Shown: one piece after another, positions 4,347 to 44,279 of the stretch
Layout: every line of letters begins with the position of its first letter
How positions within the stretch are numbered: the first letter of the stretch is position 1
Source of the DNA: Escherichia phage vB_EcoM_SA20RB
Sequence record: OL960581
DNA: 64,000 bases
Strand: one strand, 5' to 3'
The notes under the pieces: model-generated
Seen by the model: only the letters and a program-made list of their open reading frames with translations
What the model was told of the DNA's origin: nothing
The model's database searches: none
Made by a program: the position numbers and the translations under genes

Positions 4347-4605
4347 ATTTAAAACGAATAGTCGAATCCTTGAAGAATAGACCAGAACATACTGTTCCTT
4401 CTACTTTCTGCCCAGTAGGTCCAATAGCACGAAATCCAGTATGTTGGAAATCATTTTCAGAGCAACCGAACCAATTATATCCAGTGATTTCAATATTAGT
4501 AAAACCACTTGAAGACAAAACTTTGGTTGCATTATCAGCATCAGTACATCCTATTAAAGACACTGCTAATACTAATGCTGCAATAGAACGATTAATATAT
4601 TTCAT
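4345..4605 (-). CDS. putative lipoprotein (86 aa)
   Basis: signal peptide with LIGC lipobox; in-frame ATG at 4603-4605 (track start GTG 4614). Confidence 0.5.
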   Translation of the reverse strand: MKYINRSIAALVLAVSLIGCTDADNATKVLSSSGFTNIEITGYNWFGCSENDFQHTGFRAIGPTGQKVEGTVCSGLFFKDSTIRFK

Positions 4606-4610
4606 AATTT

Positions 4611-4982
4611 TCACTTAAATTTAATGGCTTGAAGAAGACTAATAACTCTCAAGCGGCTTCTTTCATCTTTAACTGTAAAGGAAAGAGGGTCACCAGATTT
4701 CATAGTGATAGTGCATCCAAAATCAAAATTTTCGGGAACTTCTTCGAAGAAGTCAAATTCTTCAGCATAAATTAGAACATTACTCTGCGTACTGTGAAGA
4801 ATTTTTCCGTCATTTCCAGATGCTGTACTAATCATCGTAACATTATGACCTTTCATATCTTCAACGATAAATTCGCTTGTAGATATTACAGCATTAATAG
4901 AACCATTCCTATAAATAGCAGACATTAGATATTTCTTTTCTTCGCCTTCGCGAATACGATATTTCTTACCGATTTTAAACAT
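4611..4982 (-). CDS. hypothetical protein (about 123 aa)
   Basis: ORF; in-frame ATG at 4980-4982 (track start GTG 4988). Confidence 0.45.
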   Translation of the reverse strand: MFKIGKKYRIREGEEKKYLMSAIYRNGSINAVISTSEFIVEDMKGHNVTMISTASGNDGKILHSTQSNVLIYAEEFDFFEEVPENFDFGCTITMKSGDPLSFTVKDERSRLRVISLLQAIKFK

Positions 4983-39322: not shown

Positions 39323-39535
39323 CTATTCCTTACTAAGAGCAGCATTCAGCTTATTAGTAATTTTATCCAGACGCTCATTGAACTCGCTAGAAGACAGTCC
39401 TTTTTCTGGAGAAATCAAACTAATCACGAAAAATATAACAATAAAAGGAATAAGGAAAATAGCTCCAACTGCCATAAACAAAAAGAATGTTACGGTTGTA
39501 AGAAAATCAGCTAAACCTTTACGAAATTTATACAT
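39323..39535 (-). CDS. small membrane protein (70 aa)
   Basis: ATG start; long hydrophobic segment. Confidence 0.45.
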   Translation of the reverse strand: MYKFRKGLADFLTTVTFFLFMAVGAIFLIPFIVIFFVISLISPEKGLSSSEFNERLDKITNKLNAALSKE

Positions 39536-39650
39536 ATTTTACCCTTAATTGATTAACCAAGCATTGATAAGCACTAAACTATATTGCGAATAAAATTCTG
39601 GACCAAAATGAAAAATCATATCATTTATAGTGTCCATAATATAATTCAAT

Positions 39651-40121
39651 TTAATCATGTTTCCACACCCCATCGGTATTTGACCAAAGTCGCTGATTAT
39701 CTGATCCTCGCCACAGCTTTTTGGTAGGAAGATTTTTCTCATACTTCCCATCAATAATAACATCAACATATTTAAGCATTTCTAGTTGTTTAATATCTTC
39801 AAATTTATATCCTGTCCACAACCAAATGCTTTTATTGGAATAAAGATTTTTTACTGTTTGAACCACAGAGTGAATAACATCTCGGTTATCAGGATAGAGA
39901 GGGTCTCCTCCAGTTATAGTTAATCCTTCTATATAATCATTATTCAAACATTCAATTAATTGTTCTAGTGTTTCACCAGTGAATGGAACACCATTTCTAG
40001 CATTCCATGTTGATTTATTATAACACCCTTCGCATTTATGCAAACAACCTGTAACGAAAAGAACTGTCCTGCATCCAGGACCATTAACAAAGCAGCATGG
40101 GTATATTCTGTCATAATTCAT
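39651..40121 (-). CDS. nrdG: anaerobic ribonucleotide reductase activating protein NrdG (radical SAM, 156 aa)
   Basis: Cys cluster CLHKCEGC; 156 aa; ATG start. Confidence 0.8.
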   Translation of the reverse strand: MNYDRIYPCCFVNGPGCRTVLFVTGCLHKCEGCYNKSTWNARNGVPFTGETLEQLIECLNNDYIEGLTITGGDPLYPDNRDVIHSVVQTVKNLYSNKSIWLWTGYKFEDIKQLEMLKYVDVIIDGKYEKNLPTKKLWRGSDNQRLWSNTDGVWKHD

Positions 40122-40950
40122 TTATATATTTCCAATTATAGCCTTCAACACTTTTACGTTCGCCATTTAAACATTTTAAAATATTTCCTTTGCTAGAAAT
40201 ATTAAAATATTTTGCTGCGTCTGGTATATAATTAAATGTTTTTAAAAGAACACCATCTTTATATGCGCCAAATAAATTAAGAGTATATTTTTCTCGAAGA
40301 CGCTGATGTTTCCTTTTCATAACCTCAGGATTTGCATACGCCAACCTCAATGAATTTCTATGTTTTTCTTTTACTTCAGGTTTTTGCATTGCTAACTTAG
40401 TTAGCCTGGAAATTTTATTTCTAACTTCGTCAGTTTTCATTGCATTTGACAAATTTAATAAAGTTTTATTTCTAACTTCAGGTTTTTGCATTGCTAACTT
40501 AGTTAGTTCTCTATGTCTTTTTCTAAAATCGTCATCCTTCCATATATTTTTCGATAATTTTGACATAGAGCGGTGAAATAATTCCTTTTCACTGGAATAC
40601 AATTTAAAAATTTCATCCAATTCATCCGCATTAAATCTATCGGTATTCGAGTTTATCATTCTATGAAAGGCATAACACATTTTACTATTGCTTGTTTTAG
40701 CTAAATAGTAATGAGCTAACGCATGGTCATAATATGACAAATTAACAATATTCCATTTATCTGTTTTATATTCAGGAAATATAGATTTGGGAAGCACGTG
40801 ATGTGCTTCCGTTTTTCCTTTTATTTTAGGATTATTATAATTTTTTGTTATCAAATCAACATATGACAATAGTAAATCATTATTTTCTTCAAATATTAAA
40901 GCTAATTTATCATTCACAAAATCGCAAGGATAAAATCTATCGTAATTCAT
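40111..40950 (-). CDS. HNH homing endonuclease-like protein (mob-type, 279 aa)
   Basis: HNH motif AHHVLPKS..YYDHALAHYY; repeated KLAMQKPEV modules; ATGA overlap with nrdD stop. Confidence 0.6.
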   Translation of the reverse strand: MNYDRFYPCDFVNDKLALIFEENNDLLLSYVDLITKNYNNPKIKGKTEAHHVLPKSIFPEYKTDKWNIVNLSYYDHALAHYYLAKTSNSKMCYAFHRMINSNTDRFNADELDEIFKLYSSEKELFHRSMSKLSKNIWKDDDFRKRHRELTKLAMQKPEVRNKTLLNLSNAMKTDEVRNKISRLTKLAMQKPEVKEKHRNSLRLAYANPEVMKRKHQRLREKYTLNLFGAYKDGVLLKTFNYIPDAAKYFNISSKGNILKCLNGERKSVEGYNWKYINEL

Positions 40951-42238
40951 TGGTGTTTAACCCTATGCATGATTTCTTTATTTTTTCCGAGATTAAATCC
41001 GCGTTCATTCGGATTTCCCAAATAACCACAAGTTCTTCTTATTGTGTTCATCTTTTTAGGATCAGTTTCTCCACAAATAGAACAAACAAATCCGTTTTCA
41101 GTAGGAGTCATTTCATGTGTACTTCCACATGTAAAACATTTATCTACTGGCATGTTAACACCAAAATAATCTAAATGTTGTGCAGCATAATCCCATACAG
41201 CCTCAAGACCTTTTAAGTTATTTTTCATATCAGGAAGTTCAACATAAGAAATGTGACCACCTGTCGCAATGAAATGATATGGGGCTTCGCGAGAAATCTT
41301 TTCAAATGGAGTGATATTTTCTTCTACTGAAACATGGAAACTATTAGTGTACCAGCCTTTATCAGTAACATCTTTTACACTTCCATATTTTTCAGTATCA
41401 AGTTTACAGAAGCGATAACAAAGGTTTTCAGCAGGTGTAGAATACAAGCTAAAAGCAAAACCAGTTCTTTCAGTCCACTGCTTAAGACGAGCATTCATTT
41501 TAGTTAAAATTTCCTGTCCAATATCACGACCGACAAGAATATTCAATTCGTGAATACCAATGTATCCTAGGGACACTGAACTTCTACCGTTTTTAAATAA
41601 CTCAATTATGTCGTCATCAGGTTTAAGACGAACCCCGAATGCACCTTCTTGGTAAAGAATAGGAGCAACAGTAGCTTTAACTCCTTTTAAGGAACTAATT
41701 CTACACATCAATGCTTCAAAACATAAATCCATTCTCTCATTGAACAATTCGGCAAATTTCTGTTCATTGAACTGTGTTCCAATATAAGAATCTAATGCGA
41801 TACGAGGAAGATTCAGTGTTACAACACCAAGATTATTACGTCCATCAAGAATTTCATTACCAGTCGAATCTTTCCATACGCTCAAGAAACTACGGCAACC
41901 CATTGGAGAAACAGGAACAGATGAACCAGTGATAGCTCTATTGTTCTTAGCTGAAATAATATCAGGATACATCCTTTTGCTTGCACACTCTAGAGCAAGC
42001 TGCTTAATATCATAGTTCGGATCGTCTTTGTAAAGATTAACACCTTCTTCAACGAACATGACAAGTTTAGGGAAAATAGGAGTTATCCCATCACGACCAA
42101 GACCTTTGATACGATTTTTCAGAATTGCTTTCTGAATCATTCGTTCAGTCCAGTCAGTTCCCGTACCAAATGTAATTGTTACAAAAGGCGTTTGACCATT
42201 AGAGCTGAAAAGTGTATTTACTTCATCATTATATTCAG
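40947..42238 (-). CDS. nrdD: anaerobic ribonucleoside-triphosphate reductase NrdD, exon 2
   Basis: C-terminal glycyl-radical motif RTCGYLG; in-frame with exon 1 after removing 1033-nt intron. Confidence 0.7.
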
Positions 42239-43271
42239 CATGAGTCGCAAATTCATGCCCGTTTATATGAAACAACAAAATTTGGATAGTCCATAGATAT
42301 GCAACGTTCTTTTATAGTGCTAGGATGAAAATTTAGCGCTTTAGCTGCTTCTATATAAGACGTATACTTAATACCGTCAACAACCACATATTCAGGAACT
42401 TTATGAATAGTAGTCTTAATACTCAAAACAAGAGGATGAGTTTCGACTTCACTTTCAGTGCAATTTAAATATTCCGCTGCTTTTTTAAAACTTCTAAAAG
42501 TTTTATTTTTAAGCTTTATCGATACTTGTTTTTTACTTTTTCGACTATTGATATTATTTTGCACATGTTCCTTAGATCTTCCGTTTTTAGCATAATATTC
42601 AGCTACAGAAGATTTTATATTGTTTTTATGAGATTCGGATAACACTTTACCCTTATGAGCATCTCTTAATTTTTGAATATGTTCTTCAGTATCCGGATGC
42701 TTATAAAACTTTTTACCGCCTATGGATTTATTTAAACATTTTTTGCTATAAAAATATTTACGTATGACCTCTTCTTCATGTTTTAATGCATCTTTATAAC
42801 TATCAAATGTTTTTAAAATTATCCATTTAGTAGGTGTATCAGTTTTTAAGCGTTCATTTATATACTTAGATGACGTTGTGTAAGTTTTCCAGTTTGTGGG
42901 CTTGTTTTTAATTGTTCTAAATTTTTTATAACCGATATAAATGTCGCCATTAGAAAACTTAACTAAGTATGTAAATGCGTCTTTATCTTTTATTTTAGTA
43001 CAACGTCTTTTTATCCATTTCATTGTTTCACCTCGTATTCATAAGATAATCTTATTTATACAAGATGACTGCTGCATGTCGCCATGCAGATTAGACTATA
43101 TCTTCATCTTTCGATGCCGGCCGTTTCGAATAGCATTAGCTTCTATTCTACACCGTTACATTCATCACGGTTAGTCGTTAGGCATTTAGTTCAAAAGAAC
43201 ATTTAGCACGGGATTGTCTACTAGAGAGGTTCCCCGTTTAGACCGGTTTTACATGAGCCTGAATTAAATTA
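42239..43271 (-). mobile_element. group I self-splicing intron in nrdD (1033 nt) carrying a GIY-YIG endonuclease ORF
   Basis: conserved core ..CTAAACGGGGAACCTCTCTAGTAGACAATCCCGTGCTAAAT.. on minus strand; junction GAGU|..G|CUGAA restores frame; length equals recalled T4 nrdD intron (1033). Confidence 0.6.
42253..43023 (-). CDS. intron-encoded GIY-YIG homing endonuclease (I-TevII-like, 256 aa)
   Basis: FTYLVKFSNGDIYIGYKKF GIY-YIG motif; lies wholly within nrdD intron. Confidence 0.7.
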   Translation of the reverse strand: MKWIKRRCTKIKDKDAFTYLVKFSNGDIYIGYKKFRTIKNKPTNWKTYTTSSKYINERLKTDTPTKWIILKTFDSYKDALKHEEEVIRKYFYSKKCLNKSIGGKKFYKHPDTEEHIQKLRDAHKGKVLSESHKNNIKSSVAEYYAKNGRSKEHVQNNINSRKSKKQVSIKLKNKTFRSFKKAAEYLNCTESEVETHPLVLSIKTTIHKVPEYVVVDGIKYTSYIEAAKALNFHPSTIKERCISMDYPNFVVSYKRA

Positions 43272-43809
43272 ACTCATACGCCTGGAATGCATCGTATACG
43301 TCTTTTTCTGTTTTAGACTGGGCATAATTCAACGCATCAGCGATTTGCCATTTTTCTGCATCCTCAATATGTTTTGCATAGGTGCGTTTAACATAAGGAG
43401 AAAGTACTTTATCTACATTAGCAAAAGTCGTTCCGCCGTACTGATGTGAAGCAACCTGTGCAGTAATTTGTGCCATAATTGCAGTAGCAACGCCAATTGA
43501 TTTAGGAGTTTCAATCTGTGCATTGCCGAGCTTAAATCCGTTCTCAAGCATTCCTTTTAAATCTACTAAACAGCAATTAGTAAATGGAAGAGCAGGGGAA
43601 TAATCAATATCGTGGAAATGGATAATTCCGCTTTCATGCGCTTTCATAATAAAAGACGGGACCATATTTTTGGCAATGTGTTTAGACACAATACCAGCCA
43701 TAAGGTCCCGTTGAGTTGGAAAAACACGAGAATCTTTATTAGCATTCTCGTTCAAAAGGTCTTTATTAGTTTTATGAATCAATCCTTCAATTTCTTTTTC
43801 AATTGTCAT
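43272..43809 (-). CDS. nrdD: anaerobic ribonucleoside-triphosphate reductase NrdD, exon 1
   Basis: ATG 43807-43809 (ATGA overlap with gene 49 stop); reading frame hits TAA immediately inside intron. Confidence 0.7.
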
Positions 43810-44279
43810 TTTAAACTCTTTCTAAGCTGCTTCTTAAATGAAGCTATTAATTGTGTTTTAGTGTCAGATTCATTATATTCAAATCCTCTTTGAAGCATCT
43901 CAGCCATCATTTCCTCTTTTCCTAAACGAGAAAATTCCTTTGATTTATCTCCAACGAAGTTAGGGTGAATATTATTTTGGGTGTAATCGGATTTTAAATA
44001 AGTAAGTAAATTTTCTAACCATTCAAGATAATCAACGCCTTGTCCCTTTAAGCCAGAACGATTAAATTTGTGCTTCATTTGACCTTCCGCTGCATTGCAA
44101 AGATTACAGAGCAATCCACGTACCTTTCCTGCTTTTGGTCCATTTAATTCATGGTCATGGTCAAGGTGATTAGCTTGAACATCAGGATTTAGTTCTCGTT
44201 GGCAAATTAAGCATTTACCGTTTTGTGCATTATAAAATTTCTGTTTTTCTTCTTTATATAATTTGCCAGTCAATAACAT
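43806..44279 (-). CDS. 49: endonuclease VII (Holliday junction resolvase, 157 aa)
   Basis: 157 aa; zinc-binding CLICQ..HLDHDH..CNLCN; ATG start. Confidence 0.8.
   Translation of the reverse strand: MLLTGKLYKEEKQKFYNAQNGKCLICQRELNPDVQANHLDHDHELNGPKAGKVRGLLCNLCNAAEGQMKHKFNRSGLKGQGVDYLEWLENLLTYLKSDYTQNNIHPNFVGDKSKEFSRLGKEEMMAEMLQRGFEYNESDTKTQLIASFKKQLRKSLK

Follow-up and report, generated by a model that had tools for sequence, protein, structure and literature searches.

The usual view of homing endonuclease genes is that they persist either between genes or within self-splicing introns and inteins. In T4-like phages the junction between nrdD and nrdG is a known hot spot for them, and the gene class found there has long been known. 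Phage T4 carries mobC, encoding an HNH protein, at this locus, and SegH is said, in work by Sandegren, Nord and Sjoberg from 2005 (NAR 33:6203), to replace mobC there. Mobile DNA of another kind, namely prophages and islands in tRNA genes, and phage 21 and e14 in icd, carries a replacement end of the target gene. Ribonucleotide-reductase operons are invaded at other points as well: T4 MobE, between nrdA and nrdB, is a Mob-type HNH enzyme translationally coupled to the upstream gene (PMC2988022), and in Aeromonas phage Aeh1, as cited in PMC3653736, MobE splits nrdA, an endonuclease gene lying inside a coding region that stays functional.

The locus considered here lies in Escherichia phage vB_EcoM_SA20RB (record OL960581), of which 64,000 nt, hereafter the window, were analysed. 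An earlier note made from these letters had placed an HNH homing-endonuclease gene between nrdD and nrdG, and the gene is indeed there. Comparison with insert-free phages reveals that an element of 829 bp has entered nrdG in frame, around nt 40/41. The element has no start of its own: the ATG, the ATGA coupling and the first 13 codons of the endonuclease are the 5' end of the recipient's nrdG, and the 3' end of the element carries a second, re-coded version of nrdG nt 1-40, which keeps nrdG whole. The three genes, all on the minus strand, are arranged as follows.

39651-40121, minus strand: nrdG (anaerobic ribonucleotide reductase activase), intact, 156 aa, starting MNYDRIYPCCFVN; Pfam Fer4_12, E 2.4e-48
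40061-40086, minus strand: GC-rich conserved hairpin followed by a T-run, within nrdG codons 12-21
40082-40121, minus strand: element-borne re-coded nrdG nt 1-40 (the 'CC allele', MNYDRIYPCCFVN), now the functional nrdG start
40082-40910, minus strand: inserted mobile segment of 829 bp, from HNH codon 14 to the stop plus re-coded nrdG nt 1-40
40111-40121, minus strand: HNH 3' end (..NEL, TGA) and nrdG start (ATGAATTATGA), overlapping by 11 nt
40111-40950, minus strand: HNH homing-endonuclease ORF, complete, 279 aa, starting MNYDRFYPCDFVN
40373-40404 and 40475-40506, minus strand: two exact 32-nt direct repeats in the HNH ORF, 102 nt apart, encoding LTKLAMQKPEV helices
about 40711-40803, minus strand: HNH motif region, EAHHVLPKS...WNIVNLSYYDHALAH
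40911-40950, minus strand: captured resident nrdG 5' end, HNH ORF nt 1-40 (MNYDRFYPCDFVN), being codons 1-13 and the first base of codon 14
40947-40950, minus strand: ATGA overlap, the native nrdD/nrdG junction (HNH ATG 40950-40948, nrdD TGA 40949-40947)
40947-42278, minus strand: nrdD second exon (anaerobic ribonucleotide reductase C-terminal part), the upstream neighbour, coordinates as for the listed ORF; Pfam NRDD, E 1.3e-122, and Gly_radical

The boundaries of the insertion emerge from relatives that lack it. Insert-free phages share the ATGA junction between nrdD and nrdG (in IME339 the 4-nt overlap is identical), and their nrdG begins with what is now the head of the HNH ORF (39-40/40 nt); against IME339 nrdG nt 1-40, HNH nt 1-40 match at 39/40 in the window and at 40/40 in phage PST. 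The overlap that the earlier note had pointed out is thus present, but it is the native junction taken over rather than a coupling evolved by the endonuclease. An absence of any MNYDR-type segment from this junction in insert-free relatives would have told against that note; they do carry the segment, because it is the nrdG start. On the left, the 3' tail of nrdD encodes a protein identical to that of insert-free phages, and the flank differs from IME339 by background mismatches only. On the right, the window nrdG has 13 differences from IME339, all within nt 12-57, after which the two are near-identical for more than 1 kb. The same boundaries recur in all 8 carriers compared, drawn from two phage lineages; with nt 37-40 (AATG) common to both copies, they can be placed no more finely than nrdG nt ~36-41.

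The two ends of the element behave differently between lineages. In carriers among E. coli, Yersinia and Shigella phages the HNH ORF starts MNYDRFYPCDFVN, just as nrdG does in insert-free Tequatrovirus. In the Klebsiella phage carriers, whose HNH is 86% identical, it starts MNFDRIYPSDFVN, and in Mexia, SmallBear and Roth77 this start matches the nrdG start of insert-free L025 and L033 at 40/40 nt. By contrast, nrdG itself starts MNYDRIYPCCFVN in 7/7 carriers with an extracted start, in both lineages (the frameshift in the eighth, BF15, led our script to mislocate its nrdG start). As the right-hand copy is the same version where the resident alleles differ, it is part of the element. The rule that the N-terminus follows the recipient is drawn from two lineages, as a protein scan of IMG/VR and the JGI metagenomes yielded no further carriers, only insert-free nrdG starts matching residues 1-13; a search of 5.8 billion proteins returned just three close clusters to the HNH protein.

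The distribution of the insert is that of a free-standing homing endonuclease, namely a presence/absence polymorphism at one precise site among near-identical phages. Annotations of the HNH gene already exist for some 30 phage genomes. Its carriers are about 21 Tequatrovirus and 10 Klebsiella-phage records, and most of the about 840 records with the locus are insert-free; the full insert is found in 21 records at 96-98% identity, and the uninterrupted junction in hundreds at 95-98%. Between E. coli-type and Klebsiella-type phages the cassette is 84% identical in nt and 86% in aa, while nrdG is 68% identical overall, and in each lineage the cassette occupies the local flanks. The cassette has therefore spread between lineages independently of the flanking genes.

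Within the window, the first 39 nt of the HNH ORF match the nrdG start at 29/39 nt and 11/13 aa. The likeness that the earlier note saw between the two N-termini does come from duplication of the nrdG 5' end. When the HNH 39-mer was compared with all of the 64-kb window, on both strands, the mean was 11.1 matches (sd 2.8), with the best match, 29/39, falling exactly on the nrdG start codon and the next site reaching 24/39; with tblastn, the HNH protein matched in the window only itself and the 13-aa nrdG start. The starts lie 829 nt apart (one less than the 830 noted before). The four synonymous differences listed at the outset (TAC/TAT, GAT/GAC, CCT/CCA, GTG/GTT) are all correct; a fifth, TAT/TAC, had been left out, as had two replacements, F6I (TTT/ATA) and D10C (GAT/TGC). 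The copies do differ mostly at synonymous positions, but the changes are not purely silent, D10C being a three-base replacement of an invariant residue. Against the insert-free allele, the CC allele differs at nt 12, 16, 18, 21, 24, 28-30 and 36, and the longest exact run common to both copies is 8 nt.

Its sequence assigns the ORF at the nrdD/nrdG junction to the free-standing HNH homing-endonuclease genes of Mob type. It matches PHROG 655 'homing endonuclease' (E 5.7e-37) and PHROG 12434 'HNH endonuclease' (E 4.7e-15); Pfam gave no HNH model above threshold and only sub-threshold NUMOD hits, comparison with solved structures gave no sequence match, and fold searches with an AlphaFold model returned nothing informative. 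The His-His...Asn...His motif is present in its conserved spacing, residues H50, H51, N67, H76 and H80 are invariant in a family alignment with distant homologues, and EAHHVLPKS...WNIVNLSYYDHALAH aligns with the T4 MobC motif ELHHIIPRS...NLVFLTYKAHYTAH. Downstream of the motif come NUMOD-like helical repeats and then a C-terminal NUMOD1-like module ending GYNWKY. Its closest relatives are HNH genes of the T6 gp055 and VR7 ORF086 types. A T6 paralogue aligning from query residue 4 was considered and set aside, its similarity being weak and its start not nrdG-like. One natural variant, P0002, lacks exactly one 34-aa unit, corresponding to the 102 nt between the 32-nt repeats; direct repeats therefore recombine in these phages.

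Set beside its neighbours at the same junction, the element is similar in position and distinct in construction. T4 MobC (210 aa) shares the locus, the orientation, the 4-nt ATGA overlap with nrdD and the 11-nt overlap with nrdG; both proteins belong to PHROG 655 and end GYxWKYxxEL, and 19/25 nt just upstream of nrdG are identical. However, the BLASTP alignment is limited to residues 42-101 (60 aa, 38% identity), and the HNH ORF, at 279 aa, has an extra helical repeat region. The PST genome labels the 279-aa gene 'mobC', but orthology with mobC was rejected: the two are not similar over their full length, and 32 records at >95% identity make up a T4-type MobC set of their own. T4 mobC is moreover adjoined by a foreign nrdG tract of ~260 nt, whereas the foreign part of the HNH cassette ends by nt ~40. 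SegH (GIY-YIG, 276 aa) of RB3/T6 (GenBank AY262138) occupies the same junction and has as its right flank the same re-coded MNYDRIYPCCFVN nrdG start, yet it belongs to a different nuclease family and makes no use of the nrdG start, its ATG overlapping a re-coded nrdD tail and its stop overlapping the nrdG ATG by ATGA. Experimental cleavage and homing data exist for SegH; a literature search found none for the 279-aa protein. T4 MobE is intergenic, unlike the HNH ORF, which lies inside nrdG, and in Aeh1 the two parts of nrdA are reunited at the protein level, while here nrdG is repaired as DNA by the 5' end that the element carries. The integrating elements offer a parallel, in that they too insert in a gene and bring a diverged version of the displaced end, with the original fragment staying on the other side; they do so at 3' ends by means of site-specific integrases, in contrast to the homing endonuclease and recombinational repair proposed here at a 5' end, where the displaced fragment has become the start of the element itself.

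The DNA around the insertion point is itself unusual. Across six diverged insert-free lineages, nrdG nt 37-66 show 95-97% identity and hardly vary even at third codon positions, against 46-91% for the remainder of the gene. The insertion point falls in the left arm of the nrdG hairpin, of which the window keeps only a 6-bp stem (40081-40066). Promoter scans detected no middle promoter with a MotA box, and sigma-70-like sites were no more frequent than after shuffling of the sequence; the best late-promoter consensus matches were 7/8, one of which (TATAAATG) overlaps the nrdG ATG. Rfam returned no match over 39500-43900.

We consider it highly probable that an HNH homing element has captured the nrdG start and carries a re-coded spare. 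Both the cut site and the activity of the enzyme we infer from the sequence. The enzyme would cut endonuclease-free nrdG near nt 40, in the stretch so conserved as DNA, and double-strand-break repair from a carrier genome would copy the 829 bp into the recipient, with nrdD plus nrdG nt 1-40 as the left homology arm and nrdG from nt 41 as the right. In the carrier, splitting of the site by the insert and re-coding of the nrdG copy over nt 12-30 would prevent re-cutting, and the re-coding would also mean that deletion of the element could draw on no exact repeat longer than 8 nt. Once the element is in place, translation of NrdG would be coupled to the endonuclease ORF, whose stop codon occupies nrdG nt 9-11, instead of to nrdD.

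The NrdG-like head of the endonuclease can be read in other ways. The earlier note took it for a mimic, a diverged target-site duplicate with silent changes protecting the endonuclease copy, and two similar 39-nt segments at both ORF starts, with many synonymous differences, do invite this reading. We regard it as very improbable, since it is the endonuclease copy that is the unchanged resident sequence in both lineages (39-40/40 nt) and the changed copy that heads nrdG, where E. coli and Klebsiella phages, whose resident alleles differ, share one version, MNYDRIYPCCFVN; duplication at a staggered cut would leave two recipient-type copies. A transposon-type target-site duplication was likewise rejected, the copies differing at 10/39 and the right one not being recipient-derived. 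Harder still to credit is that the MNYDR start is the family's own N-terminus and resembles NrdG by coincidence. Homologues of T4 MobC that lie elsewhere, at unrelated loci of Vibrio phage ICP1, a Pseudomonas phage and a Slopekvirus, do all start MNY[EDK][KR][IL]Y, and the alignment of T4 MobC with PHROG 10088 begins at the first position of both, so the MNYDRIY of T4 MobC is probably family-intrinsic; its capture from nrdG was rejected on account of those same homologues. While MNYDRIY is probably native to the MobC family, the HNH ORF has its first 13 codons from the recipient: the match runs through all 13, including YPCDFVN, the DNA is 40/40 that of the local insert-free allele and the allele switches with the host lineage, and HNH paralogues at other loci (T6, VR7, P0004, P0005, P0008) have no MNYDR start, the N-termini of the closest (T6 gp055-type, VR7 ORF086, P0004, P0008) being unrelated. 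That the ORF is a decaying, inactive remnant, persisting only since nrdG expression runs through it, would accord with the frameshift at codon 38 in BF15, with the missing Pfam HNH hit and with the listing of cleavage activity for T4 MobC, at the same locus, as not determined (PMC2988022). It is nonetheless improbable, as dN/dS between the window copy and a Klebsiella-phage copy is 0.083 over 278 codons at dS 0.9 and the catalytic-motif residues are all kept, a pattern of purifying selection that points to a working protein being maintained; the identity of the 5' copy with local insert-free alleles also implies ongoing exchange with insert-free genomes.

A separate question is why the element-borne copy of nrdG should be diverged, and here the sequences put immunity, protection from repeat deletion and neutral donor inheritance equally on the same footing. 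Immunity to self-cleavage through re-coding is plausible, though it need not apply, because Sandegren et al. 2005 reportedly found that SegH, at this locus, cuts the genome that encodes it as well, a self-cutting that also speaks for a neutral origin. Distant cutting has the same bearing on immunity, free-standing T4 endonucleases being able to cut hundreds of bp from their own gene (Edgell et al. 2010, PMC2988022). On the neutral account, the re-coded copy is simply the 5' end of the first host lineage, co-converted and with no role in immunity or stability: I6 and T19 are ordinary polymorphisms that occur also in insert-free phages, and long foreign co-conversion tracts are found at the locus, nrdG nt 43-300 of T4 and BEU50 being of Klebsiella-phage type. 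Against it, D10C (GAT to TGC, three bases) occurs in 0/27 insert-free loci, D10 being invariant in all 27, which come from at least five lineages and are in some cases only 54-59% identical. The CC allele, furthermore, accompanies three unrelated endonuclease genes, HNH (7 carriers), SegH (RB3) and MobC (BEU50), and is kept across 16-20% nt divergence of the cassette, and further re-coding in EcMI02 and TB004 (AGG to CGA, ACT) is confined to the carrier side. We hold the neutral account to be rather unlikely. Somewhat less doubtful, though still short of probable, is that the divergence was selected mainly against precise loss of the element, which identical 40-nt direct repeats would allow with an intact nrdG regenerated. 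The 8-nt limit on exact runs and the loss in the same gene of exactly 102 nt between exact repeats favour this, as does the fact that none of the insert-free loci examined has a hybrid allele bearing the ATA/CCR/TGC signature of the cassette; why an invariant residue should have been replaced, by a change of three bases, is left unexplained, as synonymous changes would suffice. Protection from loss and immunity are compatible explanations. The occurrence of the re-coded patch beside three different endonucleases suggests that hot-spot cassettes swap the nuclease and keep the flanks.

The captured start explains the NrdG-like N-terminus that annotation pipelines give to this protein. In the mobC and segH literature covered, which includes the review PMC2988022, we found no description of the start-capture layout or of the duplicated nrdG start. 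The practical stakes are modest. The arrangement nevertheless represents a different solution for a homing endonuclease gene, an in-frame 5' insertion delimited to a few bases in two phage lineages, in which the element borrows the start codon and translational coupling of its recipient and therefore needs no expression signals of its own. It also gives a sharply defined predicted homing site, nrdG nt ~12-66, and two naturally occurring alleles, one presumably sensitive to the enzyme and the other presumably resistant.

Taken together, these observations can be joined, tentatively and with considerable doubt, in a reading in which the first ~60 nt of nrdG are a battleground for HNH, MobC and SegH. 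The three endonucleases would exploit DNA kept from drifting by the conserved terminator-like hairpin that it encodes, which may be an attenuator setting the NrdD:NrdG ratio, and the MNYDRIYPCCFVN start would act as an 'immunity and repair patch', portable from one endonuclease cassette to another. If this is correct, in-frame start capture would join introns and inteins as a third general route by which a homing endonuclease gene can live inside coding sequence.

The window belongs to a T4-like Tequatrovirus, and its genes lie on the minus strand in the order endonuclease VII (gp49), split nrdD, HNH ORF, nrdG and, further on, gp55; the closest public matches to positions 39600-41300 (phages OMNI12, PST and others) are 98.2% identical. 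The features at the junction are as follows.

40111-40950, minus strand: HNH ORF, 279 aa, start MNYDRFYPCDFVN
39651-40121, minus strand: nrdG, start MNYDRIYPCCFVN
40947-40950, minus strand: ATGA overlap of the HNH ORF ATG with the nrdD TGA
40061-40086, minus strand: hairpin and T-run in nrdG (nt 36-61, codons 12-21), found also in compared loci L002 (1886-1911) and L004 (3364-3389)

The similarity of the two starts pointed out in the earlier note is real: they share 29/39 nt, and the match falls exactly on the nrdG ATG and is the best in the window, on both strands of which the next-best site for the HNH ORF 39-mer reaches at most 24/39 (mean 11.1, sd 2.8). The ATGA overlap proposed to couple the HNH ORF start to the nrdD stop is likewise present, and at its other end the HNH ORF overlaps nrdG by 11 nt, its stop codon being nrdG nt 9-11. 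The nrdD gene is split by a group-I-intron-type insert with a 256-aa I-TevII-like GIY-YIG ORF (window 42253-43023, 43264-43809), in which Pfam recognises SegE_GIY-YIG and NUMOD1; an Rfam scan of window 39500-43900 returned no group I intron even at E<=1.

Most relatives lack the HNH ORF. In insert-free IME339 the stop of nrdD and the start of nrdG share an ATGA like that of the window, and the nrdG start of insert-free relatives, ATGAATTATGATAGATTTTATCCTTGCGATTTTGTGAATG (MNYDRFYPCDFVNGPGC), is the head of the HNH ORF (39/40 nt in the window, 40/40 in phage PST). The MNYDR-type segment is thus present at uninterrupted junctions as the start of nrdG, and the mimicry of NrdG claimed for the endonuclease N-terminus must be turned round: likeness and duplication hold, but the HNH ORF begins with the resident nrdG start. 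When the window is aligned to the insert-free allele, the 3' end of nrdD departs from it at background level only, and nrdG has 13 differing positions (nt 12-57) followed by more than 1 kb of virtual identity; of these positions, nt 42 and 55-57 carry ordinary polymorphisms, found too in insert-free loci L009, L010 and L027. Since the HNH head matches the insert-free nrdG start and the nrdG differences are confined near its 5' end, the inserted DNA is 829 bp (window 40082-40910), comprising HNH codon 14 to stop plus nrdG nt 1-40 in a second, diverged version. Both copies contain AATG, which limits the resolution of the insertion point to nrdG nt ~36-41.

Klebsiella phages Mexia, SmallBear and Roth77 carry an 86%-identical protein in the same place, where the HNH ORF starts MNFDRIYPSDFVN and nrdG starts MNYDRIYPCCFVN. 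In insert-free Klebsiella-type relatives (L025 and L033, from IMG/VR) nrdG starts MNFDRIYPSDFVNGPGC, which matches the Klebsiella HNH start at 40/40 nt. In both lineages the first 13 endonuclease codons are thus always the local nrdG start, despite different resident alleles. The MNYDRIYPCCFVN nrdG start accompanies the element in 7/7 carriers from which it was extracted, in both lineages; an eighth carrier, BF15, was left out because a frameshift led the script to mislocate its nrdG start. With codons 1-13 local and the MNYDRIYPCCFVN start element-borne, the element has no start codon of its own. Inserted in frame within nrdG, it uses the nrdG ATG and the coupling of that ATG to nrdD, or in the case of the Klebsiella phages a GAGG ribosome-binding site, while nrdG is restored by a spare 5' end carried on the element. 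Paralogues at other loci have no MNYDR start (T6 gp055-type, 36% identity; VR7 ORF086; mobD-type; homologues P0004-P0008).

Several local irregularities were also seen. The HNH ORF of BF15 (L061, 451-1291) is frameshifted at codon 38, through decay of the copy or an error of sequencing, and only a truncated 'homing endonuclease' is annotated there. In Klebsiella-type phages a further ORF of 72-77 aa lies between nrdD and nrdG or HNH (L004, 2313-2531; L025, 2796-3029); its 3' end runs, in a different frame, into the nrdG/HNH start. The nrdG of L033 (contig 2974754850) is frameshifted after about codon 85.

The HNH gene is already annotated, as 'mobC' in PST and elsewhere as 'homing endonuclease'. 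Its product falls in PHROG 655 (homing endonuclease, the family of T4 MobC) and PHROG 12434 (HNH endonuclease), and keeps an HH...N...H...H motif invariant in alignment with distant homologues; Pfam gives NUMOD-like C-terminal matches only, all sub-threshold. In an AlphaFold model (pLDDT 74) residues 1-8 are coil and the motif forms strand-strand-helix; beyond it come a long stretch of helical repeats and a small module at the C-terminus. Comparison of the E. coli-type with the Klebsiella-type copy gives dS 0.90 and dN 0.075 (dN/dS 0.083), so selection acts on the protein, which is no relic. Two exact 32-nt direct repeats 102 nt apart in the HNH ORF (window 40373-40404, 40475-40506) encode repeated LTKLAMQKPEV helices. 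Precisely one 34-aa unit is missing from P0002, a homologue encoded in a public sequencing-run assembly; recombination between the repeats would be expected to remove such a unit.

The junction of nrdD and nrdG is known from the literature as a hot spot, occupied in T4 by mobC, of activity not determined, which SegH replaces in other phages (PMC2988022; bioRxiv 10.1101/2022.08.31.505936; GenBank AY262138). Among about 840 records with the locus in the phage collection, SegH (>=90% identity) occurs in 71, T4-type MobC in 32 and an HNH ORF of the window type in 31. The HNH ORF was rejected as a T4 mobC orthologue, aligning to MobC only over the motif region (38%, 60 aa). At its junctions T4 mobC is arranged as the HNH ORF is, but its MNYDRIY start is native to its family, unlike the captured start of the HNH ORF, because it is present in homologues at unrelated loci (ICP1, a Pseudomonas phage, a Slopekvirus); capture from nrdG was rejected for MobC on the same ground. 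MobC probably resembles NrdG intrinsically, and the resemblance may have supplied microhomology when the gene integrated. T4 (L003, nrdG 4447-4917) and BEU50 (L038), both mobC carriers, have an nrdG in which nt 43-300 belong to the Klebsiella-phage type (91-96% identity to Mexia, SmallBear and L025, ~62% to other Tequatroviruses) and nt 301-468 to the Tequatrovirus type (99%); this ~260-nt foreign tract adjoining mobC was presumably co-converted.

In SegH carriers (RB3, L037 880-1000) and BEU50 (L038 880-970) the last ~75 nt of nrdD are re-coded, ending in TPSVVPWNLGKMKEMVKRVKHA before the stop where the native gene ends in NPNERGFNLGKNKEIMHRVKHQ. The SegH start ATGCATAGG is a 9-mer identical to native nrdD codons Met-His-Arg, and in BEU50 12 nt of the native tail survive as a fossil, placed after the re-coded stop and before the mobC ATG. 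These tails suggest a mirror-image 'patch' on the nrdD side.

Why should the element-borne nrdG start differ from the resident one? Its signature, ATA (Ile6), CCR (Pro8) and TGC (Cys10) at nt 18-30, always occurs with the cassette; all 27 insert-free loci have Asp10, even those of a group with no more than 54-59% identity, and Cys10 was never seen apart from an endonuclease gene. The further re-coding in EcMI02 and TB004 (AGG to CGA, ACT) is again on the carrier side. Such a pattern fits a re-coded, putatively uncuttable target, although in reading the changes as protection from self-cleavage the earlier note claims more than these data show. The copies may also have diverged under selection against recombination between flanking repeats, which would delete the element: the longest exact run common to both is 8 nt, and the natural variant of the HNH gene lost exactly the unit between its 32-nt repeats. 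Alternatively, the re-coded copy may be a neutral inheritance from a donor lineage, long foreign tracts being known at this locus. The MNYDRIYPCCFVN start (nrdG nt 1-42 of L037, L038, L001, L004, L005 and L058-L060) accompanies not only the HNH ORF but also SegH in RB3 (L037) and MobC in BEU50 (L038); T4 itself, a mobC carrier, keeps Asp10. One right flank with three endonuclease genes suggests that nucleases are swapped between cassettes retaining it.

Directly right of the insertion point, identity among six diverged insert-free lineages is 95-97% over nrdG nt 37-66, where third codon positions scarcely vary, against 46-91% for the remainder of nrdG. The hairpin here has an 11-bp GC-rich stem, a 4-nt loop and then TTTTC/TTTTT (-15 to -20 kcal/mol), a structure resembling an intrinsic terminator or attenuator. 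All four nucleotides occur at the second loop base; one stem pair is compensatory (C-G to U-A, linked to a V19T polymorphism), a thin covariation from a single pair in related sequences, and several other changes keep wobble pairing. The insertion point lies within the left arm, and the hairpin is cut to 6 bp in the window nrdG, destroyed in EcMI02/TB004 and absent from the distant L028-L036 group. Homing endonucleases favour sites constrained at the DNA or RNA level, so nt 37-66 are the likely target, and this constraint would explain three different endonuclease genes at one junction.

By these comparisons the HNH ORF, at a junction already known as a hot spot, appears to be a separate member of the free-standing, Mob-type HNH endonuclease genes. 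We found no description of start-codon capture with a carried 5' patch in the mobC/segH papers examined, which include the review PMC2988022; an earlier description may exist. In-frame capture of a host start, together with a re-coded replacement 5' end, is a noteworthy and precisely delimited variant layout for such genes.
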